Assembly: GCA_020440645.1 (NCBI GenBank)
Contig: JAGRNR010000009.1
Location: 5,092-69,091, forward strand
DNA length: 64,000 nucleotides
Reading direction: 5' to 3'
From: a bacterium
GTDB taxonomy: Bacteria; 4484-113; JAFGCY01
In this document: positions 27,396-53,103 of the stretch, in pieces
Numbering within the stretch: the stretch's first letter is position 1
Layout: the number at the start of each line of letters is the position of its first letter
Made by a program: the position numbers and the translations under genes
Notes under the pieces: model-generated
What the model saw: only the letters and a program-made list of their open reading frames with translations
Database searches by the model: none
What the model was told of the DNA's origin: nothing

Positions 27396-28061
27396 GTGCC
27401 CCTATATTACTTGACAGTGCTGGCGCTCGCCGGGTTCCTGAGTGGATCCCTGCCCTTCGGCTGGCTTGTGGCGCGGCTCGGGGGCATGGACATCCGCAAG
27501 CATGGCAGCGGCAACATCGGCATGACCAATGTCTGGCGCGTGATGGGCTGGAAAGCGGGCCTGACTGTGCTGCTGCTGGACGTGGCCAAGGGCCTGCTGC
27601 CCGTGCTGCTGGCCGGGCGCCTGATGGACACCGTCAACCCACCGGGGCTGACGATCAGTGGCCGCGCCTGGCTGCTGCTGATCACCGGGCTGGCCGCGAT
27701 CCTCGGGCATACATTCACGCCCTGGCTGAAGTTCAGGGGCGGCAAGGGTGTCGCCACCAGCCTCGGTGTGCTGATCGCGCTCTACCAGTTATGGGTGTTG
27801 GCGCCGCTTGGCGTATTCCTGCTGGCGCTGGCAATCACGCGCATGGTGAGTGTCGGCAGCATCCTCGCCGCACTGAGTGTGGGCATCCTTGCGGTGGCCG
27901 TGCCGGCACTCAGGCCCTACATGGCGTTTGGCATCCCAGTGGCTCTGCTCGTGATCTGGACGCACCGCAGCAACATCCGCCGCATCCTCGACGGCACGGA
28001 AAGCCGCGTCGGCAGCGGGAAGAAAAAGCCCGCAGCGGAGTCAACCCAGGCGGATCAGTAG
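27396..28061 (+). CDS. plsY: Glycerol-3-phosphate acyltransferase PlsY
   Basis: GSLPFGWLVARL, HGSGNIGMTNVWRVMG and GHTFTPWLKFRGGKGVATSLG. Confidence 0.95.
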   Translation: MPLYYLTVLALAGFLSGSLPFGWLVARLGGMDIRKHGSGNIGMTNVWRVMGWKAGLTVLLLDVAKGLLPVLLAGRLMDTVNPPGLTISGRAWLLLITGLAAILGHTFTPWLKFRGGKGVATSLGVLIALYQLWVLAPLGVFLLALAITRMVSVGSILAALSVGILAVAVPALRPYMAFGIPVALLVIWTHRSNIRRILDGTESRVGSGKKKPAAESTQADQ

Positions 28062-29755
28062 ATCCCGGCGGAGTGGATCGAATCCAGCATTGCCGAATAG
28101 CCCGCTGACATATGCATCAGCCAGTTCGGATAGATGCCGAGGAAGATGATCGCAGCGCCGAGTGGCAACAGCACGATGGCCTCACGCAGCGGCACACGGC
28201 CCTTCGCCGACTCCGGTGCATCCCCCGGCAGCGTGCGCTGCAGCAGGCTGATCATGTACACCGCGCTCGTCAGCACGCCGATCACCGCCAGGGCCGAGAG
28301 GATCTGCAAAAGCAGGCTGCCGTCGATGCTGCCAACCAGCACCGTCTGCCAGCCCGGCCCGTTCTCGAACGCGCCCATTAAGCTGTACAGCTCGCCCCAG
28401 AAGCCGGCCAGCGCCGGGAAGCCCATGCCGGCGAAGGCCGCCAGCGAAAGCATGCCCGCCAGGAGCGGGGCCGCGCTGCCCAGCCCAGCGATCTCATGCA
28501 CGTTGCGTGTGCCGTAGCGCCGCTCGATGCTGTCCGCCAGCAGGAACAGCGTGGTGATGATCACGCCGTGGCCCACCATGTGGTAGATCGCGCCGGTCGT
28601 TGCCAGCGGGTTCATTGCGCTGCAGCCGAGGATGATGAAGCCCATGTGGCTGATCGAGCTGTAGGCGATCATGCGCTTGATGTCGGTCTGTACCAGCGTG
28701 ACAGCCGCGCCCCAGACGATGCCGATCACCGCCAGCGTGGCAACCACCGGGCCGATCGCGTAACCCTGGTCCGGCAGCGCCCAGTACAGCACGCGCAGGA
28801 ATGCGTATGTCCCGCTCTTGAGCATCACCGCCGCGAGGATCACCGACATTTCCGCCGGGGCCTGGGTATGGGCCGGCGGCAGCCAGGTGTGCAGCGGGAA
28901 CAGCGGTGCCTTGACGGCGAAGGCCACGAGGAAGCCGAGGAAGATCCACATCCTCAGCCAGGGCACGACATCCGTATAGCCCTCGTTCAGCAGGAAGGTT
29001 GCCAGGTTCGGGATCTGGAAGCTGTAAACGCCGGCGCTGATCACCTTGCAGATGATGAGCGACATCAGCATGAACACCGAGCCGGCCATGGTGTACACGA
29101 AGAAGCGGATCGCGGCGCGCGCCGCCTTCTCGCGGTCCTTGCCCCAGCCGCCGATCAGCACGTACATCGGGATCAGCATCCATTCCCAGAACAGGTAGAG
29201 CAGCACGAAGTCCAGCGCCACGAAGGAGCCGATCAGGCCGACCTGCATGAACAGGGTCAGCGCGAGGAATTCCTTCACCCGCTCCGTGCGGTACCAGCCC
29301 CAGATGATGATCAGTGGCAACAGCGCACAGGTCATCAGCACCAGTGGCAATGACAGGCCGTCGATGCCGACGTCGTAGTGCACGCTGAAGCTGCGGCTCT
29401 CGCCGATCTTGATCGCCATCCATTCGATGTCCTGGCGGTACTGGAAGCCCGGGAACTCCGCCTGGAAGGGCGTGTACTGCCCGAGCGGCTTCAGGTCCTG
29501 CACGTTCTGCGAAGTGTCCGTGTATCCGGCGTAGGGCCGCCAGCTGGTTGCACTTTCGGGCAGCCCGGTCAGCAGCAGCACCGCAAACAGCAGGCTGAGC
29601 AGCGAGAACACCAGGGCCACGATCTTGATTGGCAGGATCTTCTTCTTCGGGATCAGGCAGACCAGCAGGCAGCCGACCAGCGGGGCCAGCATCATCTGGG
29701 TGATGGGGTTGCTGATCCACGAGATGAAGCCTATGAAACTCTGCGTCTGGTCCAA
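28055..29755 (-). CDS. nuoM: Complex I antiporter-like subunit, NuoM/ND4 homologue
   Basis: LYLFWEWMLIPMYVLIGGWG, FAVKAPLFPLHTWLPPAH, VMLKSGTYAFLR, AYSSISHMGF and GFWGEL. TTG start at 29755, preceded by GGGAGGT 8 nt upstream, directly after the nuoL TAG. Confidence 0.9.
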   Translation of the reverse strand: MDQTQSFIGFISWISNPITQMMLAPLVGCLLVCLIPKKKILPIKIVALVFSLLSLLFAVLLLTGLPESATSWRPYAGYTDTSQNVQDLKPLGQYTPFQAEFPGFQYRQDIEWMAIKIGESRSFSVHYDVGIDGLSLPLVLMTCALLPLIIIWGWYRTERVKEFLALTLFMQVGLIGSFVALDFVLLYLFWEWMLIPMYVLIGGWGKDREKAARAAIRFFVYTMAGSVFMLMSLIICKVISAGVYSFQIPNLATFLLNEGYTDVVPWLRMWIFLGFLVAFAVKAPLFPLHTWLPPAHTQAPAEMSVILAAVMLKSGTYAFLRVLYWALPDQGYAIGPVVATLAVIGIVWGAAVTLVQTDIKRMIAYSSISHMGFIILGCSAMNPLATTGAIYHMVGHGVIITTLFLLADSIERRYGTRNVHEIAGLGSAAPLLAGMLSLAAFAGMGFPALAGFWGELYSLMGAFENGPGWQTVLVGSIDGSLLLQILSALAVIGVLTSAVYMISLLQRTLPGDAPESAKGRVPLREAIVLLPLGAAIIFLGIYPNWLMHMSAGYSAMLDSIHSAGIY

Positions 29756-31918
29756 CTACTCGTACCTCCCGAGGAAGCTCTGAATGATGCGCCGCAGTGT
29801 CTCGTTGAGCGGGAAGGAGACGACAATGCACATCAGCACGGCACCCAACAGCAGCACGAACATGTAGTTCTGGATCTGCCCGTTCTGCCAGTAGCGGCCG
29901 TGCAGCCGCTTGATGATCCACCAGATCTCGCAGCACCACCAGCGGATGCCGTCGACGAAGTGCAGGTCAAGCCAGGCACTGGCATTGGCCAGCCCACGGC
30001 CGCCGCGCCCGATGCGCGTTGACAGCCAGTCGATCAGGCGGATGTCTGAAATGCCTGCAAGAATTGCGAGGAACTCGCCGAAGCCGCCCACCAGTCCCGT
30101 GAAGAAGGGCTTCAAGTACAGCCCCTCGCGGAAGAATCCGGTCACGCCTGTCAAGAGCGGGGTCGGGCTGGCCAGCCCGCGCTCCGAGGCGGAGACGAAT
30201 CCAAGCACTGCGCCGGCCAGCACCAGCACGACCGAGAGGCCGGCGGCCAGTGGTTCGAAGTTGCCTGCCCATTGCAGGTCGTGCAGCCGGCCCTCGAAAT
30301 AGGCGCGGTAGGATGGCCAGAAGGCGGCGATGCCGATGCTGCCGATGAGCGCCAGCAGGATGGAAATCACAGTCGGTCCGGCCCAGCCATTGCCTGCGGA
30401 CGCTTGCTCCGCCAGGCCATTGGCAGCCTCCTTGCCGGGGGAAGGCATCAGCCCGCTCAGCAGGCGCGCACAGTAGGCTGCGGTAAAGGGAATCGATGCG
30501 ATCAGCAGCAGCGCTCCGGCCTGCCAGTAACCCGGCATGGCGGGCATTGTGCTTGCCAGTGCGTTGCCACCGTAGTCCTGTCCGGCGCGGGACAGCAGCG
30601 CGGAGAGGATCTGGTCCTTGCCGAAGTAGCCCGCCAGCCCGATCACACCGGCCAGGCTCAGGCCGGCCGGCAGCAGGGCCAGCCAGAACAGCTGTCCGCT
30701 GGCGGGGGACTGCCTAAGGTCGTCAAAACTCGGTTCGTCGTCATTATGTGTTGCCTGGGCCTCATGCCAGCGCGCCACCACAATGCCGACCGCAAGGAAC
30801 AGCGCGGCCTTGAACCAGGCATGTGCCAGCAGCTGGAATCGCGCGGCCTCCATCGCCAGCGCCCCGCTGCCCATCACGCACAGCCCAAGCTGGCTGACCG
30901 TGCTCCAGGCCAGCAGCTTCTTCGGCTGCTGCTGGCAACAGGCCACGATCGAGCCCATGAGCATCGTCAGGCCGCCGAGCATCACCGCCCAGGCCAGCGG
31001 GGCCACGTACCAGCCGGGGTTGCCACTGTCCGCCTGCACCGGCACGACAGTTCGCCCGAACAGCAGGTCACTGGCCAACAGCGGCCCGGCCGCCACCAGA
31101 GTTGCACTGTGCAGCAGGGCACTGACCGGGGCCGGGGCCACCATCGCATCCGGCAGCCAGAATGACAGCGGCAGGAGTGCTGCCTTGCCGAGCACGGCCA
31201 GCAGGACTAATAGTCCGGCCACGATCATCCAGTTCACGGCGGACAGCTGGTCCGGTACATGCTGTGCCACCCAGCCGATGCTGACCTGGCTGAGCTGCAC
31301 CATGTGCACACCGAAGCGGCCGAAGCCGAACATGAAGATGAAGATCGCGAACAGCAGCCCGAAGTCCGTGGCGCGCGTCGTCCAGAAGGCCTGGCGCGCT
31401 GCCCGGTTGGCCTCCGGCGTGCCCTTGTGGCGGATCAGCAGGTAGCCGGCGAGGCCCATCATTTCCCAGGCGATGTACAGCAGGATCAAAGTGTCACTGA
31501 CGAGGAACAGCAGCATTGAGCCGCAGAAGAATGTCAGCAGCGCATGGAATTGCGCGGCCTTCGGGTCAGCGCGCCGCTCGCGGATTGCATACAGCAACAC
31601 CGCCACGCCGATCAGGCAGGTTGTCAGGATGAACAGCACCTGCGTGTAGTCCGCGCGCAGGGCCAGCGGGATCGGCGGGAAGGCGCGGATCTCCGTGGTG
31701 TAGCCGCTGATCCAGTTGACCATCCATACCGCGCGGCCGGTCTCGGCATCCAGTCCCGCATTGACGGCGAGCGCCATCCCGGCACTGGCCACAAGCGACA
31801 GCACGCCGAGCAGGGCCGTGACGACGGCCGGCACACGGCGCATGAGCAGGCCCGCCCCCGCCGCCAGCAGCGGCAGAAGCGCGATCAGCGGCAGCAGTCC
31901 CTGCATCTCAGGCACCAC
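29756..31918 (-). CDS. nuoL: Complex I antiporter-like subunit, NuoL/ND5 homologue with a C-terminal lateral-helix region
   Basis: AWEMMGLAGYLLI, GKAALLPLSFWLPDAMVAPAPVSALLHSATLVAAG, HAWFKAALFLAVG and C-terminal FVDGIRWW...LHGRYWQNGQIQNYMFVLLLG. AGGAGG at 31927..31922 precedes in-frame GTG codons at 31918 and 31915. Confidence 0.9.
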   Translation of the reverse strand: MVPEMQGLLPLIALLPLLAAGAGLLMRRVPAVVTALLGVLSLVASAGMALAVNAGLDAETGRAVWMVNWISGYTTEIRAFPPIPLALRADYTQVLFILTTCLIGVAVLLYAIRERRADPKAAQFHALLTFFCGSMLLFLVSDTLILLYIAWEMMGLAGYLLIRHKGTPEANRAARQAFWTTRATDFGLLFAIFIFMFGFGRFGVHMVQLSQVSIGWVAQHVPDQLSAVNWMIVAGLLVLLAVLGKAALLPLSFWLPDAMVAPAPVSALLHSATLVAAGPLLASDLLFGRTVVPVQADSGNPGWYVAPLAWAVMLGGLTMLMGSIVACCQQQPKKLLAWSTVSQLGLCVMGSGALAMEAARFQLLAHAWFKAALFLAVGIVVARWHEAQATHNDDEPSFDDLRQSPASGQLFWLALLPAGLSLAGVIGLAGYFGKDQILSALLSRAGQDYGGNALASTMPAMPGYWQAGALLLIASIPFTAAYCARLLSGLMPSPGKEAANGLAEQASAGNGWAGPTVISILLALIGSIGIAAFWPSYRAYFEGRLHDLQWAGNFEPLAAGLSVVLVLAGAVLGFVSASERGLASPTPLLTGVTGFFREGLYLKPFFTGLVGGFGEFLAILAGISDIRLIDWLSTRIGRGGRGLANASAWLDLHFVDGIRWWCCEIWWIIKRLHGRYWQNGQIQNYMFVLLLGAVLMCIVVSFPLNETLRRIIQSFLGRYE

Positions 31919-31953: not shown

Positions 31954-32439
31954 TCAATCCTTCATCAGGTTGGCATCATCAAGCATGATGCTCTTCTTCA
32001 TGCGGTAGAAGGCGATGATGATCGCCAGCCCGACCGCAGCCTCAGCCGCAGCAACGATGATCACGAATATCGAGAACACCTGGCCCATGTTCGTCATCAC
32101 GGATTCCTCCGCGGTGAACGAGGCCAGGGTGGATTTCGGTCCGTAGTAGAAGTTGAACGCGCTCATGTTGATGTTGACGGCGTTGAGCATCAGCTCCAGC
32201 GCCAGCAGCATCCCGATCGCATTGCGCCGCGCGATCACGCCGTACAGCCCGAGGCAGAAGATGAACGCGCTGAGCACGAAGTACTGGTGGTAGTCCACGT
32301 TGGTGAACCACACCATCGGCGTGTCGCCACTTGAGGCGAACCACTGGCGCGAGGCGAACTCGATCGCCTGGATGATCGGCGCCAGGCCCTCGCTCGCCAG
32401 CGAGCCACCCTCGGACTGTTGCAGCAGCAGCAGTAACAT
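31954..32439 (-). CDS. nuoK: NuoK/ND4L homologue, extended (161 aa versus about 100)
   Basis: RRNAIGMLLALELMLNAVN and VAAAEAAVGLAIIIAFYR. The ATG at 32439 overlaps the nuoJ stop (TGATG). The track ORF (to 32652) is over-extended. Confidence 0.85.
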   Translation of the reverse strand: MLLLLLQQSEGGSLASEGLAPIIQAIEFASRQWFASSGDTPMVWFTNVDYHQYFVLSAFIFCLGLYGVIARRNAIGMLLALELMLNAVNINMSAFNFYYGPKSTLASFTAEESVMTNMGQVFSIFVIIVAAAEAAVGLAIIIAFYRMKKSIMLDDANLMKD

Positions 32440-33485
32440 CAGTCCTTCCTCACCAGGATGATCGCGCCGAGCATCGCCATGAGCAGGAGCACGCTGGCCA
32501 CTTCGAAGGGAAGTGTGTACGTTGCCATCAGCGACCAGCCGATGGCCTGGGTATTGCTTGTCAGTACTGCCGCACTGGGCGGGAACTCGGTGTTCTGCGG
32601 GAACTGCATGAACATCCCGACGAGCGCCATGAAGCCGAACAGCATCGTGCACAAAAGCGCGGCCCAGGGGCTCAGGTCAGTGTTCTGCCTGAGCTCGGTG
32701 CCGATGATGTTCTGGCTGACCATGATGCCGAACAGGAACAGCACCATGATGCCGCCGATGTAGATGATCACCTGCACCATCGCGAGGAACTCAGCGTTGA
32801 GCAGGATGAAGTAGCCGGCCACGCCGAACAGCGAAAGGATCAGCATCAGCGCGGAGTGGAACACGTTGCGCATCGTTACGCAACCGATGCCGCCGCCGAC
32901 CACGCCCGCCGTGAACAGCCAGAAGAAGAAGTTCAGCAGCCTGAGCGCGGGCACGCTGAGTGCCAGCATGCCCCAGAAGAAGGCGATGAAGCCAACGACT
33001 GTGAGGATTGCCAGCAGGCGCCGGTGGTCATGGAAGCGGTGCAGCGAAAGCTGCACGCAGGCGATCGTGCCGCCGACCAGCCCGAGGATCAGCATATTTG
33101 AAAGGTTGACAACCAGCGGCTGGAACAGCAGGGAGCTGATCACGAACACCGCCAGGCCAGCGCTGGCTGCCACCCGCAGCAGTCCGGCCTCCGCCGGCAG
33201 GCGGTTGAACAGCATCAGGTTCAGCAGGTAGAAGCCGGCGAGCATGCTGGCGCCCACCAGGATGCGTGCGTCCAGCTGCAAGGCCGCGGACCAGTCCAGT
33301 TTTCCACCCAGCGCTGCCAGCGGGGCGGCCAGCAGCGCCACAAGCACCGCGATCCCGGCCGTTGCCAGCAGCTGGCGGAAGATGCCGTCCAGCCGGTTGA
33401 CGAGCAGTCCGGCGGCCGCCAGCAACGCGGCCAGCAGGGCCACATTGCGCAGCAGCATAAGGGCGGCGGGCAGGCTGGTTTCCAT
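32439..33485 (-). CDS. nuoJ: NuoJ/ND6 homologue with an N-terminal multi-TM extension of about 170 aa
   Basis: The C-terminal half carries RNVFHSALMLILSLFGVAGYFILLNAEFLAMVQVIIYIGGIMVLFLF and PFEVASVLLLMAMLGAI. The N-terminal half is extra hydrophobic helices. Confidence 0.85.
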   Translation of the reverse strand: METSLPAALMLLRNVALLAALLAAAGLLVNRLDGIFRQLLATAGIAVLVALLAAPLAALGGKLDWSAALQLDARILVGASMLAGFYLLNLMLFNRLPAEAGLLRVAASAGLAVFVISSLLFQPLVVNLSNMLILGLVGGTIACVQLSLHRFHDHRRLLAILTVVGFIAFFWGMLALSVPALRLLNFFFWLFTAGVVGGGIGCVTMRNVFHSALMLILSLFGVAGYFILLNAEFLAMVQVIIYIGGIMVLFLFGIMVSQNIIGTELRQNTDLSPWAALLCTMLFGFMALVGMFMQFPQNTEFPPSAAVLTSNTQAIGWSLMATYTLPFEVASVLLLMAMLGAIILVRKD

Positions 33486-34480
33486 CAGGAACTCACCTCC
33501 CCGCGTGGCCGCCTGAGCGGCAGCACCAGCGCCTCGCGATTGGCAACCGGCATCGCCCAGCGCTCCTCGAACACGACGAGCGGGGTGCCGTCCGCGCGCT
33601 TCAGTTCGCCCAGCGCGGGATCATGGTCATAGCGTCCGAGGTCAACGAACAGCACCGTCGGCTGCCCGGGGGCCTGCGCGATTGCACCGCTGCCATCGGC
33701 GGCGATGATGCGCAGCGCTTCCTCCTCAGTCAGTGAGTCGACATTCAAGAGCGGCACGCCGCGGTAGGCCGCCGGCAGCTTCGGCCGGCTGCGCGGATAG
33801 TCCTCGGTGAAGGGCTCGCTCGAAGCCATCCGGGCGGTCTCGCGGAAGCCGGTCAGCACGGAGGTGCCGTAGCGGTGCACGCGGTTGCTGAAGAACCAGA
33901 ATTGGCTGAAGCCGGTTGCAAGGTAGCTCAGGTTGAGCACGAACACCAGGAACCAGAACAGCGCCCAGAGCATGAAGTAGCCGAGCTGGAACTTGAACAC
34001 GGGGAGGCTGCCGGTCTCGCGCCAGATGGCGAAGCCCTCGCCGCTGAGCAGAAGCGTCAGGTTCGGCGTGTCGGCAATGCCCTTCACGCTCATCTTCGGG
34101 TGGATGCGGTCCAGCGGGTCGAATTCCACGATGAAGAAGAACAGGATGATCACGAACAGCAGCAGACGCCAGAGCGTGAAGTCGCGCACCATCCAGCGGC
34201 TGTACTTCACAAGCGCGCCGGATGCCCACCAGAAGAAGCCGAGAATCGCCGGCAGGGCCAGCAGCAGGCCGCTAGCAGTGAACCACATCAGAGAGTACTG
34301 CTCGGAGGGCTGCTTGGAGGCATAGTCGTCAAACAGCGCGCCGTATTTCGTGTAGACGAACACCAACGTGAACCAGGACACGGCGATGAAGCCATAGAAC
34401 TTGAACCAGTCCATCGCGGTGTAGCCGAACCAGCGCTTCGGCAGCGGATGGTGGATTGTCAGGTCATGCCCGTCAGGCAT
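33485..34480 (-). CDS. Unknown polytopic membrane protein with a soluble C-terminal domain (331 aa), embedded in the complex I-like operon
   Basis: The ATG at 34480 (MPDGHDL) overlaps the upstream stop by 8 nt, and its own stop overlaps the nuoJ ATG (TGATG). Trp/Phe-rich TM segments. No cysteine at all, so it is not a NuoI ferredoxin. Confidence 0.75.
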   Translation of the reverse strand: MPDGHDLTIHHPLPKRWFGYTAMDWFKFYGFIAVSWFTLVFVYTKYGALFDDYASKQPSEQYSLMWFTASGLLLALPAILGFFWWASGALVKYSRWMVRDFTLWRLLLFVIILFFFIVEFDPLDRIHPKMSVKGIADTPNLTLLLSGEGFAIWRETGSLPVFKFQLGYFMLWALFWFLVFVLNLSYLATGFSQFWFFSNRVHRYGTSVLTGFRETARMASSEPFTEDYPRSRPKLPAAYRGVPLLNVDSLTEEEALRIIAADGSGAIAQAPGQPTVLFVDLGRYDHDPALGELKRADGTPLVVFEERWAMPVANREALVLPLRRPRGEVSS

Positions 34481-34943
34481 GCTGCACCTCCTCCACCGTT
34501 TCCGGCTCGTTGGCAGCACTGCCGCCCGCTCCTGCTGCGGCGATGTTGCGCAGCTGGGCATGGTGCCCGGGCGCCGTCACCACGAACCAGTAGAGGAAGC
34601 CGGGCAGCAACAGCAGCACCGGCCGCAGTGTGAACTGCAGTTCGTACTGCAGCCACAGCGAATACAGGCAGCCGCAGGCCGCGAAGCTCCACAGCAGGGA
34701 AGCGATGCCGGGCCGCCGCCTGAACCAGGGGTTGATCCAGGCCGCATTGCGCGCCGGCGTCAGCGGCAGCACCGCCAGCAGCAGGCCGATTGCCAGCAGG
34801 GCCAGCGGGCCGAACCACTGCGTTGTCAGCACGGGTGCCACTCCAAGCACGATGCGCAGGTACAGGCCCCAGGCCCCGGCGGCCACGAGCAGCAGCTCTC
34901 CGAGGAGATGCAGCAGGTTCTGGCTGGTTGACAGCATCCTCAT
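34473..34943 (-). CDS. Unknown small membrane protein (156 aa, about 4 TM), embedded in the complex I-like operon
   Basis: The ATG at 34943 overlaps the nuoH stop (ATGA). Sequence MRMLSTSQNLLHLLGELLLVAAGAWGLYLRIVLGV... The track ORF (to 35042) is over-extended into nuoH. Confidence 0.7.
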   Translation of the reverse strand: MRMLSTSQNLLHLLGELLLVAAGAWGLYLRIVLGVAPVLTTQWFGPLALLAIGLLLAVLPLTPARNAAWINPWFRRRPGIASLLWSFAACGCLYSLWLQYELQFTLRPVLLLLPGFLYWFVVTAPGHHAQLRNIAAAGAGGSAANEPETVEEVQHA

Positions 34944-36715
34944 CCGGTCCAGCTCACCTCCCGGCGGGGCTGCGGATGTCGGCGCTGCACGAACAGGATG
35001 CGCCAGGCCATCAGGAGGATGAACAGGCCGAAGAACAGGCACAGCACGTTGTAGCCCCAGAAGAAGGCCTTCTCGGGGACTGTCATCACCGCCAGTGCTT
35101 CAGCTGTTGTCAGCGTCTGGTACTGGGTGACGCGCTGCAGGGCGGTCACGTCGACATCGGAGACGGCCAGCTGGTTCGCGCTGAACCAGGGATGGCGGTT
35201 GACGACGCCGAGCGCGGTGGCCGCCATCACGACCACGCTGGCCGGCAGCAGGAACTTCCAGGAGAAGAACATGATCTGGTCCACGCGGATGCGCGGCATC
35301 GTGGAGCGCGCCCATATGAAGAAGAAGCACACGGCGTAGGTCTTCAGCAGGAACCAGAACAGGCTCGTCAGCCACAATCCGTCGGGGCCGAGGAACATCG
35401 GGCCCTTCCAGCCGCCGAAGAAGCAGACGGTCATGATCGCGCTGACGATGAACACGTTGGAGTACTCGGCGACATAGAACAGCGCGAAGCGCATCCCGCT
35501 GTACTCCACCAGGTAGCCGCCCAAGAGCTCGTTCTGCGCTTCCGGCAGGTCAAAGGGCGGGCGGTTGGTCTCGGCAAGGCTGACAACGAGGTAGATGATG
35601 AAGGCCGGGAACAGCGGCAGGATGCCCCAGGTCATCGTCTGGCGCTGCACGATCTCCGTCAGGTTCAGCGAACCGGCAAAGATGGCAACGCACAGCAGGC
35701 TCATCAGCATCGGGATTTCGTAGGTCAGCAGCATCGCGGCCTCGCGCATCGCGCCGACCAGTGCATATTTGTTGTTGGAGGCGTAGCCGGACATGATCAC
35801 GGCCACGAGGAACATCGCAAAGTCGGCGATGATCAGGAGCAGGCCGACATTCAGGTCCTGGATCATGTAGTAGATGATCTGCCCGTCGACAGCCGCCACG
35901 CCGAACGGGATCACCACCCAGCTCAGGAGCGCCGGCAGGTAGACGAGGATCGGCGCGATCAGGTACAGCAGCTTGTCAGCGCTGAGCGGAACGGTGTCTT
36001 CCTTGAAGAAGATCTTGATCGTGTCGTAGAAGCCCTGGCGCCAGTAGTAGCGCAGCATGTAGCTCATGTAGAGCACGAAGGCGACCACGGTGCACAGCAC
36101 GGTGAGCTGCGGCAAAAACGGGATGTGCGCCTTCGGGATGAAGCCCAGCAGGAGAGCGACGAGCATGCCACCGCAGGACGCGAGGGATGGCCAGGCCAGC
36201 AGTGACAGCAGCGTTGCCAGGAAGCGCCAGACGGAGGTCTGCGCGGCCTGCATCCGGCCGAGCGCTGGCAGGATCATCAAGCGGTTGATCAGCCCCATCA
36301 TGCCCACGGCGAAGAACAGGATGATCCAGCCGCCGAACTGTTGCCAGCCGGCGGTGCCGCCGGTCCAGTAGTTGATGCCGTACAGCAGCGCGGGCAGGCC
36401 GATCAGCACGCCGATCTGCAGGAAGATCCGCCGGAAGCGCTGCGGGGTGACCTCGCCGTACTCCTGCGGGCCGCGGCGGCCCTGCATGCGCGCCATCAGG
36501 CGGCGTTCCCAGACCTGCAGGCCGATGGTGATCATCAGCTCCAGGAGGAAGATCAGCAGGAGCGCCGTCACCAACATGATGCCGTTGGCAACCTCCGGGC
36601 TGAAGCGCAGGCCGGGCAGCGGCTCGGTGTTGAGCCAGGCGCGCATCGCCTCCCAGACGGTGCGGGCCTCGTCCATGTCGTAGCGCTGCTGCAGGATTGC
36701 CAGCATCGGGAGCAT
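34940..36715 (-). CDS. nuoH: NuoH/ND1 homologue, enlarged (591 aa) by a multi-TM insertion after TM1
   Basis: WERRLMARMQGRRGPQ, then about 170 inserted residues, then IKIFFKED, SLAETNRPPFDLPEAQNELLGGYLVEYSG and ARSTMPRIRVDQ. The ATG at 36715 overlaps the nuoD stop (TGATG). Confidence 0.85.
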   Translation of the reverse strand: MLPMLAILQQRYDMDEARTVWEAMRAWLNTEPLPGLRFSPEVANGIMLVTALLLIFLLELMITIGLQVWERRLMARMQGRRGPQEYGEVTPQRFRRIFLQIGVLIGLPALLYGINYWTGGTAGWQQFGGWIILFFAVGMMGLINRLMILPALGRMQAAQTSVWRFLATLLSLLAWPSLASCGGMLVALLLGFIPKAHIPFLPQLTVLCTVVAFVLYMSYMLRYYWRQGFYDTIKIFFKEDTVPLSADKLLYLIAPILVYLPALLSWVVIPFGVAAVDGQIIYYMIQDLNVGLLLIIADFAMFLVAVIMSGYASNNKYALVGAMREAAMLLTYEIPMLMSLLCVAIFAGSLNLTEIVQRQTMTWGILPLFPAFIIYLVVSLAETNRPPFDLPEAQNELLGGYLVEYSGMRFALFYVAEYSNVFIVSAIMTVCFFGGWKGPMFLGPDGLWLTSLFWFLLKTYAVCFFFIWARSTMPRIRVDQIMFFSWKFLLPASVVVMAATALGVVNRHPWFSANQLAVSDVDVTALQRVTQYQTLTTAEALAVMTVPEKAFFWGYNVLCLFFGLFILLMAWRILFVQRRHPQPRREVSWTG

Positions 36716-37866
36716 CACTTGTCGACCTCCCCGATCATGATGTCGAGGCTGCCGTAGATCACGAACAGGTCCGCCAGCAGGTAGCCGCGGCACAGCTCGT
36801 CCAGCAGGAACAGGTGGTACAGGCTCGGCGCACGCAGGTGCATGCGGCTCGGGCGGTTGCTGCCGTCGCTGACGAGTGTCAGGCCGAGCTCGCCGCGCGG
36901 GCTCTCGACCGCCGTGTAGACCTCGCCGCGTGAGACCTGCATCGCAGCGAAGTCTGGGCTGACATCCGCCGCCCGCAGCTCGCCGTTGTCAATGTAAGCC
37001 AGGCAGTGCTCAATGATGCGCAGGCTCTCGCGCATCTCGACGAAGCGCACGCGGTAGCGGTCCAGCACATCGCCATACTCGCCGGTCGGCACATGCAGCT
37101 CCAGCTCGCCGTACATCGCATAGGGCTGGTCGCGGCGCAGGTCATGCGCGATCCCGCTGCCGCGCAGCACGGGCCCGGTGGCACCGTGCTCGAAGGCGAA
37201 CTCGGGCTCGAGCGTGCCGATCAGCTCGCTGCGGTTGACCCAGATCGCGTTGTCAGAGAAGAAGTCCTCGTATTCATCCAGCCGGCCCTGGAACCACAGG
37301 CAGAATGCCCGCACATGGCCGCTGAAGTCCTCCGGCGGGGCAGTGCGCACGCCGCCGGGCACGATCCAGCCGTGGTGGTGGCGGTGCCCGCTGAGCATCT
37401 CCAGCAGGTCGAGCAGCATCTCGCGCTCGCGCAGCGAGATGAAGATCGGGGTGTAGGCGCCGGCCTCCAGGCCGAGGTTGCCAAACCAGAACAGGTGGTT
37501 GCCGATCCGGCTCAGCTCCAGCACAAGGGTGCGCAGCCACTGCGCACGGGCCGGAACCGTGATCCCCTCGATGCGCTCGATGGCGTCCGCCACCAGCCAG
37601 TCCGCATTGCTGCCGGCCAGCCACTCGCAGCGGGACAACAGCCCCGCCGCCTGGGCGTAGTTGCGCTGGGTCACCAGCTGCTCCACGCCGCGGTGCATGA
37701 AGCCGACCTCCGGCGTGATGCGCTCGATCAGCTCGCCGTCCGCCTGTACCCGCAGTTCCAGCGGGCTCGGCAGGCTCGGATGCTGCGGGCCGACGGAGTA
37801 GACCAGCTTCTCGGTCAGCAGCGGGTCGCGGCGGATCTCGACACGGCGATCAGAGCTGCGCGTCAT
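36715..37866 (-). CDS. nuoD: NuoD / 49-kDa / NiFe-hydrogenase-large-subunit-like protein lacking quinone-ligand and NiFe-ligand residues
   Basis: GPQHPSLPSPLEL (canonical GPQHPxxHGVLRL), GFMHRGVE, SRCEWL (canonical RxDY), REREMLLDLLE, SPRGELG, RAPS and C-terminal DIMIGEVDK. GGGAGGTG lies 6 nt before the ATG at 37866. Confidence 0.85.
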   Translation of the reverse strand: MTRSSDRRVEIRRDPLLTEKLVYSVGPQHPSLPSPLELRVQADGELIERITPEVGFMHRGVEQLVTQRNYAQAAGLLSRCEWLAGSNADWLVADAIERIEGITVPARAQWLRTLVLELSRIGNHLFWFGNLGLEAGAYTPIFISLREREMLLDLLEMLSGHRHHHGWIVPGGVRTAPPEDFSGHVRAFCLWFQGRLDEYEDFFSDNAIWVNRSELIGTLEPEFAFEHGATGPVLRGSGIAHDLRRDQPYAMYGELELHVPTGEYGDVLDRYRVRFVEMRESLRIIEHCLAYIDNGELRAADVSPDFAAMQVSRGEVYTAVESPRGELGLTLVSDGSNRPSRMHLRAPSLYHLFLLDELCRGYLLADLFVIYGSLDIMIGEVDK

Positions 37867-38431
37867 CAAGCACCTCCCGCATCGCCGCGTCCGCGCGCTG
37901 TTTCAGCACGTTTTCAGCGTAGTTCTCATGTGAGGCAGCCCTGAACTCCCGCCTGAGCGGGAAGCCCTGCAGCTGCGGGTCGAGGATCAGGCCAATGAGG
38001 TTAGGGTTGCCGGCGAAGGGGATGCCGAAGAACTCGAAGATCTCGCGCTCCATCAGCTCCGTGGCCCGCCAGATCAGGCTCAGGCTGGGGTGCACGCTCT
38101 GCCCGGCATAGGCCGGCGCGGCCTCGCTGTCCTCCCCGCCCGGATCCGTTGCCGGGGGATTGCCCTCCAGCAGGGTGAATTTCCATTTCAGTGTGAGGCT
38201 GACGTCATGCCGCCTGCCGTGCCTGAGCGTCAGGTAGAGGTGGAAGTCCGGCCCGCCGAGGTGGTTGGCGGTCATGTTCAGCGCACGGATGAAGCCGATG
38301 TTCTTCAGCTGGCGGCAGACCAGCGGCAGCTGGCCGCTGTCCGTCAGGATCGCCCAGCCGCGGGCGGGGTCCAGCAGCAGCACATCACCGCAGTCCTCAC
38401 GGATCTGACCGGCAAGCTCATCAGGGAGCAC
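37850..38431 (-). CDS. nuoC: NuoC / 30-kDa subunit homologue
   Basis: SLSLIWRATELMEREIFEFFGIPFAGNPNL and GFPLRREF. GGAGG lies 5 nt before the GTG at 38431. The track uses the TTG at 38434. Confidence 0.8.
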   Translation of the reverse strand: MLPDELAGQIREDCGDVLLLDPARGWAILTDSGQLPLVCRQLKNIGFIRALNMTANHLGGPDFHLYLTLRHGRRHDVSLTLKWKFTLLEGNPPATDPGGEDSEAAPAYAGQSVHPSLSLIWRATELMEREIFEFFGIPFAGNPNLIGLILDPQLQGFPLRREFRAASHENYAENVLKQRADAAMREVLDDAQL

Positions 38432-38537
38432 CAAGTCCTCCCCATCCTGGCTGGATTACGGCAATCGGCATACAGGTATAAACGATCAAAAGCCCCACAG
38501 CGTTACCTTATACATACAAAATGCAAAGGCTTTTGTA

Positions 38538-38543: not shown

Positions 38544-38689
38544 GCCGATGGGGCAGCGCTGATCACCGCCTGCAGGCAATTGGTTGAAGGGCGTGTGGGT
38601 CTGCCAGCCCAATTGTTAACAGCGGGAAAATCAAAGTAAAGTCCCGATTCAATTAGTTGATTCATTATCTTGCGAGCCTGGATAATTTC

Positions 38690-38695
38690 TATAAT
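38690..38695 (+). promoter_or_regulatory. Putative -10 box TATAAT for the membrane-protein/histidine-kinase pair
   Basis: The + strand reads TATAAT, 54 nt before the ATG at 38750. Confidence 0.35.
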
Positions 38696-38749
38696 TCAAA
38701 TCGTCAGACCCAGTCTGTACCGGTTGAATTCAAGATTCCAGGTCAAGGC

Positions 38750-39025
38750 ATGCCACAGCAGCATGAATTAATTACTGCAATCCTCGGACTTGGCGTGTTG
38801 TTGCTGATGATCGTGCAACGCCGCCAGCTGCGGCTCATCCCTGACTACCGCTGGCTGTTCCTCTCCTACTGCCTGATCCTGCTGGCCTGGCTGCTGACCA
38901 TTGCGGAAGATTACTGGCTGCCGGTCTACATGAACCTGCTGGAGCATATCTGTTACCTGGCCAGCGCAGCGCTGGTCGCCTGGTGGACACAGAAGTTCCT
39001 CAGAAGGGAAGCGCCACAGCAATGA
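38750..39025 (+). CDS. Small 3-TM membrane protein resembling the kinase sensor membrane domain
   Basis: MPQQHELITAILGLGVLLLMIV... The segment IPDYRWLFLSYCLILLAWLL parallels RRDYLWCLIILLVVLGL in the kinase. ATGA overlap with the kinase start. Confidence 0.6.
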   Translation: MPQQHELITAILGLGVLLLMIVQRRQLRLIPDYRWLFLSYCLILLAWLLTIAEDYWLPVYMNLLEHICYLASAALVAWWTQKFLRREAPQQ

Positions 39026-40836
39026 GCATGCTGCTGACGGTGTTTGACCTGCTGAGCCTGCTGGCCGTGCTGTCTGCACTGTGGCTGGCGGCAGCCAGGC
39101 GGATTGCCGGCCTGCGGCGTGACTACCTGTGGTGCCTGATCATCCTGCTGGTGGTGCTGGGTCTCAACTTCCTCAGCAACCTGCTGGACAACAGCGGGCT
39201 GAGCCCCTGGCTGGAGCGCTTCGAGGACTACCCCGGACTGCTGCAGCCGGTGTTCTGGGGCATCCTCCTGATGAGCCTGGTGCAGGACCGCGCCCTGCGC
39301 CGCACCGAGCTCTCTGAACAGCGGCTGCGCGGCCTGCTGGACGCGATGCGTGACGGGGTTGCCACTATTGACCCGGGTGGCGTGTTCCGCTTTGCCAACC
39401 CGGCGGCCGCGGAAATCCTCGGGGTTGCCCACGGCAGCCTTAGCGGCCGCAGTCTGGACGAGTTCTGGCTGGCTACCGAATCGCATACTTGCCGGATGCT
39501 GCCACATTCCCCGGGCCAGGATTACAGCGCCTACGAATGCGGCATCCGCCATGGCAGCGGCGACAGCCTCGTGCTGCTGCTGCAGGTCTCGCCGATCCCG
39601 GGCCAGCCCCGCCAGCGCCTGCTGTTCATGCATGATGTGACCCCGCTGCGCCGGGCCGAGCACAGCCTGCAGCAGGCCCAGGCCCAGCTCGGACAGGCCC
39701 AGCGGCTGGAGGCGATCGGCACGCTGGCCAGCGGCATCGCCCATGACTTCAACAACATCCTGTTCGCGATTTCCGGCAACAGCCAGATCGCGCTGGATAC
39801 TGAGGGACTGACCGTCGATGCGCGGGAGAGCCTGCGCGAGATCGACACCGCCAGCCGCCGCGCCTCCGACCTGGTGGCGCAGATCCTCAACTTCAGCCGC
39901 AGCGAGAAGAGCCGGACACGGGACCTGTTGCCACTTCCGGTTGTCAAGGAAGTGCTGCGCCTGCTGCGCTCCACCGTGCCGCCGCAGGTCAGCATCCAGC
40001 TCAGCCATGACGAATCGACGTGCCGGATCCATGCCGACCCGACCGACCTGCACCAGCTGCTGATGAACCTCTGCACCAATGCGATCCAGGAGATGGCGGT
40101 GGAGGGCGGGACGCTGCGGGTCCGGTTGGAGTGCAGCAATCCACCGCCGACACTGGCCGAGCGGGGAATGCTGCAGCCTAAACCACACCTGATGCTCAAG
40201 GTCAGTGACACGGGGGGCGGTATTCCACCGGATGCGCTGCCGCACATCTTCGAGCCCTTCTTCACGACCAAGCCAAGCGGTGAGGGCACCGGTCTAGGGC
40301 TGTTCGTTGTCAGCGGGATCGTCAAGCGCCTGCAGGGACAGATCGAGATTGACAGCGAACCGGGCCATGGCAGCAGCTTCACGGTCTGGCTGCCGCTGTC
40401 CAGCGGGGCCGCTGATGCCGACGATGCCGGGCCGGGGCAGGCCACCGGCCGCGGCCGGGGCCGGCTGCTGGTGGTTGACGACGAGCCGGCGGTCAACCGG
40501 GTGCTGGCGCTGATGCTCGGCCAGCTCGGCTACAAGGTGACAACCTATAGCGACAGCTACCGCGCGCTCAGTGAGTTCCAGACCAACCCGGAGCAGTACG
40601 ACCTGCTGCTGTGCGACATCTCGATGCCGGGCCTGCGCGGCGATGAACTGGTGAAGCGGATACGCTCCGTTCGCCCAGGCCTGCCGGTGGTGCTGTGCTC
40701 CGGCAATCCGGATGTTCTGCCTCCGGGCAGTGCAACTGAACTGGGTGTGCATGCAGTGCTTAAGAAACCGGTTGACAAGCCACAGCTGGCGGATTGCATC
40801 GCCGAGGCACTTGGCAGTAACCGTGCACAGGCCTGA
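39022..40836 (+). CDS. Hybrid sensor histidine kinase (TM sensor, PAS, HisKA, HATPase_c, receiver)
   Basis: LASGIAHDFNNIL (H box), LMNLCTNAIQE (N), DTGGGIP (G1), GTGLGL (G2). Receiver RLLVVDDEP...LLLCDISMPG...VLKKPV. Confidence 0.9.
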   Translation: MSMLLTVFDLLSLLAVLSALWLAAARRIAGLRRDYLWCLIILLVVLGLNFLSNLLDNSGLSPWLERFEDYPGLLQPVFWGILLMSLVQDRALRRTELSEQRLRGLLDAMRDGVATIDPGGVFRFANPAAAEILGVAHGSLSGRSLDEFWLATESHTCRMLPHSPGQDYSAYECGIRHGSGDSLVLLLQVSPIPGQPRQRLLFMHDVTPLRRAEHSLQQAQAQLGQAQRLEAIGTLASGIAHDFNNILFAISGNSQIALDTEGLTVDARESLREIDTASRRASDLVAQILNFSRSEKSRTRDLLPLPVVKEVLRLLRSTVPPQVSIQLSHDESTCRIHADPTDLHQLLMNLCTNAIQEMAVEGGTLRVRLECSNPPPTLAERGMLQPKPHLMLKVSDTGGGIPPDALPHIFEPFFTTKPSGEGTGLGLFVVSGIVKRLQGQIEIDSEPGHGSSFTVWLPLSSGAADADDAGPGQATGRGRGRLLVVDDEPAVNRVLALMLGQLGYKVTTYSDSYRALSEFQTNPEQYDLLLCDISMPGLRGDELVKRIRSVRPGLPVVLCSGNPDVLPPGSATELGVHAVLKKPVDKPQLADCIAEALGSNRAQA

Positions 40837-40884
40837 CGGGCGGGCGCGTCAGTGCTTTGTGATATACATGGGGAGGAGGCAGGC

Positions 40885-41250
40885 ATGGCGAAGAAGAAGT
40901 TCGAGGATGTGGACCCGCAGGTGCTGGCGGCCTACATGAAGATGATCGGGGGCGTTGAAGGGGTCGAGGCCAAGGGGGCCGCCGCGCCGTACACCTCCCT
41001 GAATGGCAATATGTACTCCAGTATCTCGAAGTTCAACGAGATCGGCCTGCGGCTGGCGAAGGATGAGCGCGAGGCCTTCCTCGAGAAGTACGACACCCGG
41101 CTCTACCACTCCATCCCCGGATATGTGCAGCGGGAGTATGTCACCGTGCCGCCTGCACTGTTTGGCAACACACGCACTCTGCGCAGCTGGTTCCGGAAGT
41201 CCTACGACTACGTCTCATCACTGCCGGCGAAGCCCACGAAGAAGAAGTAG
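40885..41250 (+). CDS. Small cytoplasmic protein (121 aa), possibly TfoX-N/YjbR-like fold (tentative)
   Basis: GGAGGAGG at 40872..40879, 5 nt before the ATG at 40885. Sequence MAKKKFEDVD...PYTSLNGNMYSSISKFNEIGLRLAKDEREAFLEKY...REYVTVPPALF...LRSWFRKSYDYV. Confidence 0.55.
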   Translation: MAKKKFEDVDPQVLAAYMKMIGGVEGVEAKGAAAPYTSLNGNMYSSISKFNEIGLRLAKDEREAFLEKYDTRLYHSIPGYVQREYVTVPPALFGNTRTLRSWFRKSYDYVSSLPAKPTKKK

Positions 41251-41313
41251 CGGGAAGGATTTCGGCGCTCGCTTGTCGGCAGTAGCGGGCGCGCTTGGCG
41301 ACGCCATGGAGTG

Positions 41314-41471
41314 ATTGCCGCGAAGCAATGAGTGATGGTGTGTTGGTCTGCAGACCAACAGGGCCCTGTGGCTCTCAAGAGCCACACTCCGCCGCGTGCG
41401 CGCAGCCACGCGGAAAGCCCCTCTGCAATGAGCAATGCGGAGCAAGCAATGAGCCCGACGACACTCATTGC
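41314..41471. repeat. Cluster of five hairpins/palindromes with recurring GCAATGAG motifs in a 490-bp non-coding gap between convergent genes
   Basis: Hairpins: attgc..gcaat (41314..41329); a perfect 20-bp palindrome tgttggtctgcagaccaaca (41341..41360); tgtggctct ca agagccaca (41367..41386); ccgcgtg..cacgcgg (41392..41413); gcaatgag..ctcattgc (41446..41471). The motif gcaatgag occurs at 41325, 41425 and 41446. Confidence 0.6.
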
Positions 41472-41741
41472 CAGACTCTGCGGCTCTGCGTTCACCAATA
41501 TCGCTCCACCCCAGCCGCATTGCCAACCAAGTGCAGGCTAGCCTCAGCCCAGTCAAACTGGAGAATTGTCAACACAGAGCCACCGAGCGCACAGAGTTTT
41601 CTGATCAGCTCCAGTCCCCGCATTTCCCTGACTTCGCTGCATCCCCTCCCAATCGCGGCTGGGCCGCGCCGGTTCTTCCGGTAACCCTGACCCTTGTTCT
41701 TCAGGTTGACTGATTCACTGGGAAATCCGAGACGAGCCAGT

Positions 41742-42539
41742 CTATGAATACAGAAGATCCTCAAAATCCTCCGTCAGCTCTCCATGGAAAGTAGGGTAGT
41801 CAACCCTCCGGACATTGCGCCGCCATGGTCGCGGCCCCAGCTCGCTGCTTGTAAGCAGCTTGAGGTGAAGCGGATCGACATCTGTTGCCAGGCTGCATTC
41901 CGATCCGATGATCCCGTCTTTGTCCATGAAGTCCGTGTTTGGCCAGATATTGAAACTGCGACCGGATGACGTCCGGATCGAAGTCGGATTGAAGCCCATG
42001 GCAATCTCCATGGCATTGTAGCTTTCCCTGCGGATATCCAGCGGCAGGGCAAACCTTGACTGCTCAACATGCGCTGCATCCGACAATGCAGACTCTCCCT
42101 TTTGCCATTCGGGAAGGGGCATCGAGGCACTCAGGATGACAAAGGCCTTCTCTTGCCAGACGCCCGCATGATCCCTGACACAGCATGGGAACATCAGCCA
42201 CTTCATCCGCCGTTGAAACGCCGCGAATCCCACGCTGCCAATGTTCAGCAGCAGTTCCGCAAGCACTTTCGCCGGTTTCTCCATACCGGCATCCCAGGAC
42301 CTGGCCTTATCCAGGCAGCCTGCCGGAATTCTGAGCAGAAATCCCGATGCATGATCGAGATACCAGTCGGCATTGCATCTGGTGCAGATGTGCAGGATTC
42401 CGCGTTGCCAGCTTTCCCTGCGGATGATGAGCTTGTGCAGTTTGAAGTATGGGGTTTCCTCCCGGACACTTGCAGGAGGATCAGGATCCCAGGGGAGTGA
42501 TTCCCTGACCTGACAAGGGCAGCTGGCCTTGATACTCAT
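41742..42539 (-). CDS. Hypothetical Cys-rich protein (265 aa), lower GC, 19 nt downstream of nuoB
   Basis: Clean ORF MSIKASCPCQVRES...HICTRCNADWY..., with possible Zn-ribbon-like CPC/CxxC pairs. Codon third positions are visibly less GC-rich than in the neighbours. Confidence 0.6.
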   Translation of the reverse strand: MSIKASCPCQVRESLPWDPDPPASVREETPYFKLHKLIIRRESWQRGILHICTRCNADWYLDHASGFLLRIPAGCLDKARSWDAGMEKPAKVLAELLLNIGSVGFAAFQRRMKWLMFPCCVRDHAGVWQEKAFVILSASMPLPEWQKGESALSDAAHVEQSRFALPLDIRRESYNAMEIAMGFNPTSIRTSSGRSFNIWPNTDFMDKDGIIGSECSLATDVDPLHLKLLTSSELGPRPWRRNVRRVDYPTFHGELTEDFEDLLYS

Positions 42540-42558: not shown

Positions 42559-43011
42559 CTACCGCCACGCAAACCGCTCATCCAGCGCACCCGAGAGGAT
42601 GCGCTCCCGGAGCGCGATGATGCCGTCGATCAGCTGCTCGGGCCGCGGCGGGTCGCCCGGCACATAGATGTCCACTGGTACGATGCGGTCCACTCCCCCG
42701 TCCACCGCATAGCTGCCGTCGAAGGGCGCGCCGCTGATCGCCCCCGCGCCAAACGCCATCACGAAGGCCGGGTCGGCCATCGAGGCATGCAGCCGGCGGA
42801 TCACCGGGGCCATCTTGTTGTTGACGACGCCGGCCACGATCAAAAGGTCCACCTGGCGCGGGCTGGGGCGCATCACCTCAGAGCCGAAGCGCGCGATGTC
42901 ATAGCGCGGCGAGATCGCGCTGAACAGTTCCAGCGTGGCGTAGTCCAGTCCGAGCATCAGCGGCCACAGGGAATGGGCACTGGCCTCGCGGATGAGGTCC
43001 TTCAGACCCAT
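42559..43011 (-). CDS. nuoB: NuoB / PSST / hydrogenase-small-subunit-like protein with no cysteine (N2 cluster ligands all replaced)
   Basis: SLWPLMLGLDYATLELFS (canonical SLWPxxFGLACCAIEMM), SPRQVDLLIVAG, NKMAPVIRRL, FGAGAISGAPF (canonical MGACASSGG) and VDIYVPGDPPRPE (canonical VPGCPPRPE). There are zero Cys in 150 aa. Confidence 0.85.
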   Translation of the reverse strand: MGLKDLIREASAHSLWPLMLGLDYATLELFSAISPRYDIARFGSEVMRPSPRQVDLLIVAGVVNNKMAPVIRRLHASMADPAFVMAFGAGAISGAPFDGSYAVDGGVDRIVPVDIYVPGDPPRPEQLIDGIIALRERILSGALDERFAWR

Positions 43012-43400
43012 TCCAGCGCTCCCTTGCGGTAGGCATAGGCCCAGCCGACGAGCAGGATGCCGAGGAACACGAACATCTCGCCCAGTGAGGCGGCCCCGAT
43101 CGGCGTGAAGGTGATGTCGTCATTGCCGAACACCAGCAGCCGGAAAGCGGTGGCCCAGGGGAAGATGAACATGATGTCCACGTCGAACATGAGGAACACG
43201 ATCGCGAGGATGTAGAAGCGGATGTTGAAGCGCACCAGCGCATCGCCGGTGGCCTGCGCGCCGGATTCATAGCTCAGGCGCTTGAGGAAGTTCGGCCGCC
43301 GCGGACGCCACAGGTTCAGGAAAGCGAATGCCAGCCCGATCAGCACCGCCCCGCCCAGCAGGAAGAGTGCCACCCAGTTGTACTGTCCAACGGTGTTCAT
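43002..43400 (-). CDS. nuoA: NuoA/ND3 homologue
   Basis: LSYESGAQATGDALVRFNIRFYILAIVFLMFDVDIMFIFPWA. A 10-nt overlap with nuoB. Confidence 0.85.
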   Translation of the reverse strand: MNTVGQYNWVALFLLGGAVLIGLAFAFLNLWRPRRPNFLKRLSYESGAQATGDALVRFNIRFYILAIVFLMFDVDIMFIFPWATAFRLLVFGNDDITFTPIGAASLGEMFVFLGILLVGWAYAYRKGALEWV

Positions 43401-52965: not shown

Positions 52966-53103
52966 CCGGATTTTATGGTGACACATGTGAAAGATTAATT
53001 GTGTACCGCCGGTCGGTTTCATCTCAATTTGAAGTACCCTTGAAATTGTGGAAGAATTGTAAGAGGGCAGGCAAGCATGCCTGTCCGGCTGGCTGGACAA
53101 GCA

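Follow-up and report, generated by a model that had tools for sequence, protein, structure and literature searches.

A 64-kb stretch of a bacterial contig (JAGRNR010000009.1, positions 5,092 to 69,091), here called the window, carries on its minus strand a conserved operon of 11 genes of the nuo (complex I) type in the order A-B-C-D-H-ORF1-I*-J-K-L-M. Two open reading frames (ORFs), ORF1 and ORF2 (the latter marked I*), lie between nuoH and nuoJ and are the subject of this report; they had been pointed out in an original prediction made from the sequence alone, and both are present where that prediction placed them. The window was compared with the related loci L001-L016, several of which are only partial. 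The nearest named genomes are metagenome-assembled genomes labelled UBP7, among them a complete genome, CP060262.1, at 97% identity. Coordinates of all features are given in Table 1.

The genes of this region are tightly coupled. The nuoH stop and the ORF1 start form ATGA, ORF1 and ORF2 overlap by 8 nt (ATGCCTGA), and the ORF2 stop and the nuoJ start form TGATG, with a GGAGG-like site upstream of each of these junctions. All three read as originally described, and so does the likeness to bona fide nuo genes, with TGATG coupling also found at nuoD/nuoH and nuoJ/nuoK. The H-ORF1-ORF2-J order is kept in relatives at 44–80% identity.

Although the genome is GC-rich (G+C content at third codon positions is 0.86–0.88), ORF1 and ORF2 are genuine genes and did not arise as chance ORFs. 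ORF2 has 43 homologues with identities down to 44%, and a profile of ORF1 finds 27 proteins, whose genes share contigs with those of ORF2 homologues. Ratios of nonsynonymous to synonymous substitution rates (dN/dS) are 0.065–0.34 for ORF2, 0.18–0.49 for ORF1 and 0.04–0.39 for the core nuo genes, so that every gene of the operon is under purifying selection. The conservation at orthologous loci on which the original prediction depended is thus seen for both ORFs, ORF1 being missing from one locus of the clade (L008). Its account of the products also stands in most respects: the smaller protein has four predicted transmembrane (TM) helices by hydropathy and in its AlphaFold2 model, the larger is polytopic, likewise with four, and has no cysteine, neither contains Fe-S motifs, and Pfam and NCBIfam scans give no match to either at E ≤ 0.1. 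Only the soluble C-terminal part of ORF2 was underestimated, at about 100 amino acids (aa) rather than ∼130.

Table 1. Features of the nuo operon and its surroundings in the window.
Feature	Position	Strand	Length	Remarks
nuoA	43002..43400	-	132 aa	
nuoB	42559..43011	-	150 aa	alignment to T. thermophilus Nqo6; family alignment
nuoC	37850..38434	-	194 aa	Pfam and NCBIfam scans
nuoD	36715..37869	-	384 aa	Pfam and NCBIfam scans; alignments
nuoH	34940..36715	-	591 aa	Pfam NADHdh, 3e-97
NuoH insert (residues ~88-226)	~36038-36454	-	~138 aa	hydrophobic
ORF1	34473..34943	-	156 aa	four-TM, acidic tail predicted cytoplasmic; clade-specific candidate accessory subunit
ORF2	33485..34480	-	331 aa	between ORF1 and nuoJ
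ORF2 residues 1-197	33890..34480	-		four-helix membrane anchor; AlphaFold2 helices, profile matches
ORF2 residues 198-331	33485..33889	-	134 aa	probable NuoI/TYKY-derived domain, all eight cluster cysteines replaced
nuoJ	32439..33485	-	348 aa	Pfam Oxidored_q3 matches residues 199-344 only
NuoJ extension (residues 1-185)	~32931-33485	-	~185 aa	hydrophobic, N-terminal
nuoK	31954..32439	-	161 aa	Pfam, NCBIfam, alignment
nuoL	29756..31918	-	720 aa	NCBIfam NuoL model matched end to end, below cut-off
nuoM	28055..29755	-	566 aa	TIGR01972, 450 bits, above cut-off; PDB alignment
Variable insert	38657-42539		~4.1 kb	between nuoB and nuoC
Insert ORF	41742-42539	-	265 aa	Cys-rich, no family
Insert ORF	40852-41250			TfoX_N-like
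Insert ORF	38983-40836			PAS-HisKA-HATPase-REC hybrid kinase
Insert ORF	38657-39025		122 aa	TM protein
Four large PKD-repeat proteins	43454-45553, 45676-47172, 47904-49997, 50092-52914	-		two with PPC domains
Subtilase	53077-56775		1232 aa	after the PKD-repeat run

ORF2 and the NuoI family

We conclude with good confidence that the operon does have a NuoI (TYKY/NDUFS8) subunit, and that ORF2 is a derived form of it. The protein has four TM helices followed by its cytoplasmic part. In the AlphaFold2 model (mean predicted local distance difference test, pLDDT, of 80) the helices span residues 22–45, 58–93, 95–120 and 166–220, and the last of them runs into the N-terminal helix of NuoI. The anchor is marked by the motifs FWWAxGAL, WRWFW and DPLDxIHP, and after it the family alignment contains a stretch, 'VLTGFRETAR..PVT.DYP....LP..YRGVP.L', that resembles the N-terminus of NuoI/TYKY. 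The NuoI-like domain is predicted to be cytoplasmic because four TM helices follow a basic N-terminus, and this is the side on which NuoI would have to act.

A profile of the ORF2 family, searched against 1.84 billion protein cluster representatives, matches only 27 of them. Five distant matches (P0062, P0066, P0068, P0067 and P0073; E 7e-25 to 3e-13) align over the membrane part and the NuoI N-terminal motif, and then go on into a canonical NuoI domain with two CxxCxxCxxxCP motifs. That Fe-S-bearing domain matches solved NuoI/NDUFS8 chains in the Protein Data Bank (PDB) at E 4e-29, and the genes of these anchored proteins lie directly between nuoH and nuoJ. Locus L010 has the operon A-B-C-D-H-I*-J-K-L-M, with which the partial loci L013-L016 agree over the stretches they cover. 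Protein P0071 of locus L011 is an intermediate: it matches the ORF2 profile over its full length (E 5e-14) and occupies the same H-I-J slot, and it keeps only '...CP...' and 'CYFCGLC' (CxxCxxC), half of the cysteines. Since the anchor is common to the Fe-S-bearing relatives, it would predate the loss of the clusters; by this comparison the anchor fusion came first and the loss of cluster ligands later.

The two types also correspond in their C-terminal parts, which hhalign pairs with 93.3% probability (E 2.8e-7, 49 columns). In a MAFFT alignment with a solved NDUFS8 fragment, ORF2 is colinear along the entire NuoI domain, with a Thr, an Arg-Gly, a Leu, an Asp and the Arg of a terminal 'RE.L' invariant, and the eight cluster-cysteine positions are occupied by A, I, A, G and Y, L, L, D. 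The six best Foldseek matches to the ORF2 model are four NDUFS8 chains, HycF and MbsN, of which MbsN has a probability of 0.30 and the other five have 0.99–1.0. ORF2 therefore has the gene position of NuoI between nuoH and nuoJ, its N-terminal helix with the 'xT..YP(E)....LP..(F/Y)RG' motif and its 2x[4Fe-4S] ferredoxin-like fold as predicted, but lacks the two CxxCxxCxxxCP motifs that ligate N6a and N6b. Because the cofactor motifs are missing and the curated models fail to match, we set it apart as what appears to be a degenerate, membrane-anchored variant, a homologue of NuoI by descent and not a functional NuoI.

In the architecture that we propose, a long helix joins the anchor to the NuoI N-terminal helix and to the 'PxTxDYP...LPxxYRG' strand, which would be followed by the cysteine-free ferredoxin-like domain. 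With all eight [4Fe-4S] cysteines replaced, ORF2 probably retains only the structural role of NuoI and would not transfer electrons in the known way; it may clamp NuoH to the NuoB/C/D module, with the anchor reinforcing the contact.

Two long ORF2 homologues, P0032 and P0054, contain an insert of ∼130 aa. They were considered as ORF1-ORF2 fusions and rejected as such, the extra length being an insert within the membrane anchor. We take these inserts as another sign of an evolutionarily plastic hydrophobic periphery.

Redox sites, transport residues and additions in the other subunits

The cysteines of cluster N2 have also been lost. Aligned to T. thermophilus Nqo6, NuoB has Asp-Tyr, Gly and Asp at these positions, and the same replacements (GLDYxTLE, PGDPP) are found in all UBP7-clade loci that cover nuoB. 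The NuoB of L011 has Ser-Glu, Gly and Ser, and that of L010 keeps all four cysteines. The conserved residues could constitute a new polar or metal site or be mere structural filling; the Asp-Tyr...Asp arrangement might form a new ligand or cation site. In the NuoD of complex I, His38 and Tyr87 (T. thermophilus numbering) lie at the quinone headgroup site. Compared with solved 49-kDa subunits and with L010, which retains both residues, the window NuoD has Pro at the His position, where relatives have Ala, Thr or Val, and Trp at the Tyr position. An association with cysteine-free NuoB had been raised in the original prediction and is seen in every related locus covering nuoB; wherever the genes are covered, ORF2-type NuoI always occurs with both a cysteine-free NuoB and a disabled quinone site. 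Judged from these alignments, the known ligands for N2, N6a, N6b and the quinone headgroup are all lost.

No nuoE, nuoF, nuoG or nuoN gene was found in the operon, in the 64-kb window or in the covered regions of the related loci, and the only antiporter-like subunits in the window and in the loci covering that region are L and M. Compared with complex I, the operon thus lacks the N2 cysteines, the quinone-site His and Tyr, NuoE/F/G and the third antiporter-like subunit. No operon of the window or of L001-L016 contains nuoN, although NuoL matches its model over the full length, lateral-helix region included.

The charged residues of the proton path that were compared are present. NuoM retains the TM5 Glu, TM7 Lys, TM8 Lys and TM12 Glu, and NuoH the 'ETNRPPFDLPEAQNEL' loop between TM5 and TM6 ('ETNRPPFDLPEAxNEL'), both by alignment to PDB chains, and NuoK retains both TM glutamates in the family alignment.

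In the cysteine-free clade NuoH and NuoJ have gained hydrophobic additions of variable length. NuoH contains an insert of ∼138 aa after TM1, at which its PDB match is split; the insert is clade-specific, varies from ∼70 to 170 aa, lies between TM1 and the first amphipathic helix, and is missing from L010 and L011. The corresponding region of complex I lines the entrance of the quinone cavity. NuoH also has an extra helix at its C-terminus. The N-terminal extension of NuoJ is ∼60 aa long in L001 and 130–150 aa in L008 and L009, with none in L010 and L011. NuoK appears to have an N-terminal extension and an extra stretch in its TM2-TM3 loop ('GPKSTLASFTAEESVMTNMGQ'); the loop stretch is common to the Fe-S-bearing loci and so would predate cofactor loss.

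In this genome nuoA and nuoB are split from nuoC-M by a variable insert. The nuoB-nuoC gap in L004, from a genome 97% identical, is far shorter and matches the 265-aa ORF, and nuoA-D form one unbroken run in L001 and in L006-L009.

The small membrane protein encoded by ORF1

ORF1 (AlphaFold2 pLDDT 84.6) ends in an acidic tail. Its only cysteines, C90 and C92, fall at alignment columns that are not invariant, and its basic TM2-TM3 loop suggests that both termini are inside. In the window and throughout L001-L007, a hidden Markov model (HMM) of ORF1 matches where nuoH and ORF2 meet. In L009 the match is weak (E 0.004), to a divergent four-TM protein at the junction. The model has no match in L008 or in L010-L016, and thus in no Fe-S-bearing locus; ORF1 is restricted to the cysteine-free clade, candidate phylum UBP7. 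Its AlphaFold2 model has no specific fold relative. Two possible origins were considered and rejected: ORF1 is not a duplicate of the ORF2 anchor (hhalign against the ORF2 family gives 2.7% probability), nor a split-off C-terminus of NuoH, the extra helix there occurring with and without ORF1.

Gene order, overlap coupling and co-occurrence with ORF2 are best read as indicating an accessory subunit: being coupled to both nuoH and nuoI, ORF1 most likely encodes a component of the complex, and it would sit near NuoH and the ORF2 anchor. Two points count against this. The assignment draws on gene order and coupling, and L008, a member of the UBP7 clade, has a toxin-antitoxin-like pair at the nuoH/ORF2 junction instead of ORF1; for this reason ORF1 may be dispensable. 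The pair (L008 ∼9370–10004, in a 21-kb locus) was recognised by eye from motifs as an MNT-like nucleotidyltransferase and a HEPN/DUF86-like protein.

ORF1 might instead be an independent small membrane protein that settled at an insertion-prone nuoH/nuoI junction. Its absence from L008 and from the Fe-S-bearing loci would fit this, as would the lack of a fold relative and its rate of change, the fastest in the operon by dN/dS. However, ORF1 overlaps both neighbours as core genes do, holds the same position in relatives down to ∼28% identity, shares contigs with ORF2 and has dN/dS below 0.5, and we regard an independent protein as unlikely.

Proposed function and comparison with known systems

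We tentatively favor the view that the operon encodes a complex I derivative free of redox cofactors, in which the Q-module (NuoB, NuoC, NuoD and the tethered NuoI) and the ion-translocation machinery are kept under purifying selection for a non-redox job such as transport driven by the proton-motive force (pmf), gating or sensing. Such an assembly would no longer transfer electrons or couple redox chemistry, and its cofactor-free peripheral module could serve as a structural or gating element. A more specific version, held with still less confidence, is that the complex is a redox-independent, pmf-linked cation/proton translocator analogous to Mrp.

Some observations weigh against the interpretation as a whole, from the identity of ORF2 to the function. 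Curated NuoI models (the Fer4 types of Pfam and NuoI of NCBIfam) miss ORF2. Direct profile-to-PDB searches, made once with the whole ORF2 family and once with only its C-terminal domain, and taken as a lead rather than proof, give weak matches to NuoI (E 0.15–2), confined to the N-terminal motif of NDUFS8 and NdhI. Ion transport of the Mrp kind is argued by analogy. Finally, nuoN, nuoEFG or canonical nuoB and nuoI could possibly act in trans, the searches having covered the window and the loci.

Another reading is that the complex is still a redox enzyme, either with cofactors held by non-cysteine ligands or with canonical NuoB, NuoI or N-module proteins encoded elsewhere in the genome. The strict conservation of the N2-site replacements within the clade would suit such an enzyme, as would the strong purifying selection on the Q-module, and the gene content is known for the window and loci. 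Against it, wherever the genes are covered in the clade, the 12 cluster ligands and the two quinone ligands have all been lost at once, and neither in the loci nor next to them is there a gene for a redox partner. Substitution in trans is moreover made less likely by the NuoB and NuoI homologues that the operon itself encodes and that are under selection. We therefore consider a surviving redox enzyme quite improbable.

According to the original prediction, NuoI had been replaced by two unknown membrane proteins, both extra subunits. That neither protein is matched by Pfam or NCBIfam, that ORF2 has no cysteine and that its direct PDB sequence matches are not significant are what one would expect if NuoI were lost and two unrelated proteins had taken its slot. 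This is very improbable in view of the links at E 1e-13 to 1e-25 to anchored, Fe-S-bearing NuoI in the same position, the intermediate P0071, the colinear domain, the hhalign result and the predicted NuoI fold, all of which identify ORF2 as the NuoI orthologue. What survives is the subunit status: conserved and translationally coupled inside the nuo operon, both proteins are plausible subunits, with ORF1 the only new, family-less extra component. Lastly, a decaying, non-functional remnant of complex I, as the loss of all redox ligands and the split of the operon in this genome might suggest, is hardly credible, since all genes are intact, the dN/dS values of the core genes contradict decay, the same architecture extends over a clade spanning 44–100% identity and the transport residues are kept.

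If a cofactor-free complex is indeed what the operon encodes, it bears on a general problem. There is still debate over how complex I couples redox reactions at its quinone site to proton pumps far from it. A lineage with the full coupling architecture but no Fe-S clusters or quinone ligands would be a natural separation-of-function variant, in which the structural contribution of the peripheral module and of NuoI could be seen apart from electron transfer. The loci appear to form an evolutionary series from Fe-S-bearing, TM-anchored NuoI through a half-degenerate form to the cysteine-free form with ORF1, and would document how an oxidoreductase was turned, step by step, into something different. 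Complex I has been proposed to originate from an antiporter and a hydrogenase, and the series would mirror this in reverse. There is also a practical consequence: ORF2-type proteins are annotated 'hypothetical' and the operons are likely scored as 'complex I present', which could mislead metabolic reconstructions of UBP7 genomes.

Among known proteins ORF2 is most readily compared with NuoI/Nqo9/TYKY/NDUFS8 (also NdhI, HycF, MbhN and MbsN), with which it shares the slot between nuoH and nuoJ, the N-terminal helix, the 'T..YP....LP..FRG' strand, a ferredoxin-like domain ending in 'RE.L' and the predicted fold. It differs in the lack of the eight cluster cysteines, and so of N6a and N6b bound in the known way, and in the presence of a four-helix anchor of ∼200 aa. 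The anchor is shared with the Fe-S-bearing TM-NuoI of metagenomic bacteria (P0062, P0066, P0068; L010, L013-L016), whose operons also lack nuoN and have the NuoK loop insert. Unlike the window, these loci have no ORF1, NuoH insert or NuoJ extension, and L010, where all three genes are covered, retains every cluster cysteine of NuoI (eight) and of NuoB (four, for N2) as well as His and Tyr in NuoD. We saw neither a TM-anchored NuoI nor an Fe-S-free Nuo-type complex described in the full-text literature, of which our coverage is incomplete.

At the level of the whole complex, the operon resembles the 11-subunit NDH-1 of cyanobacteria and plastids and Fpo in having nuoA-D and nuoH-M type genes in the same order and no N-module genes. 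However, NDH-1 and Fpo keep N2, N6a, N6b, a quinone or methanophenazine site and three antiporter-like subunits, whereas the window operon lacks cluster ligands and has just two such subunits, L and M. [quoted passage not shown] An Mrp antiporter would have MrpE, F and G and no hydrogenase-like peripheral module, a description that the operon does not fit. The Ehr complexes are complex-I/hydrogenase relatives of unknown function in which the metal ligands expected of the catalytic subunit are missing (PMC6349859, PMC7894505), with subunits named EhrA, EhrC, EhrL and EhrS (PMC7894505). Ehr is Ech-like in composition, whereas the locus described here has NuoA, NuoC, NuoJ, NuoK and a 49-kDa-type NuoD. 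By its gene content, then, the operon is classified as Nuo-type, and as neither Ech/Ehr-type nor Mrp.

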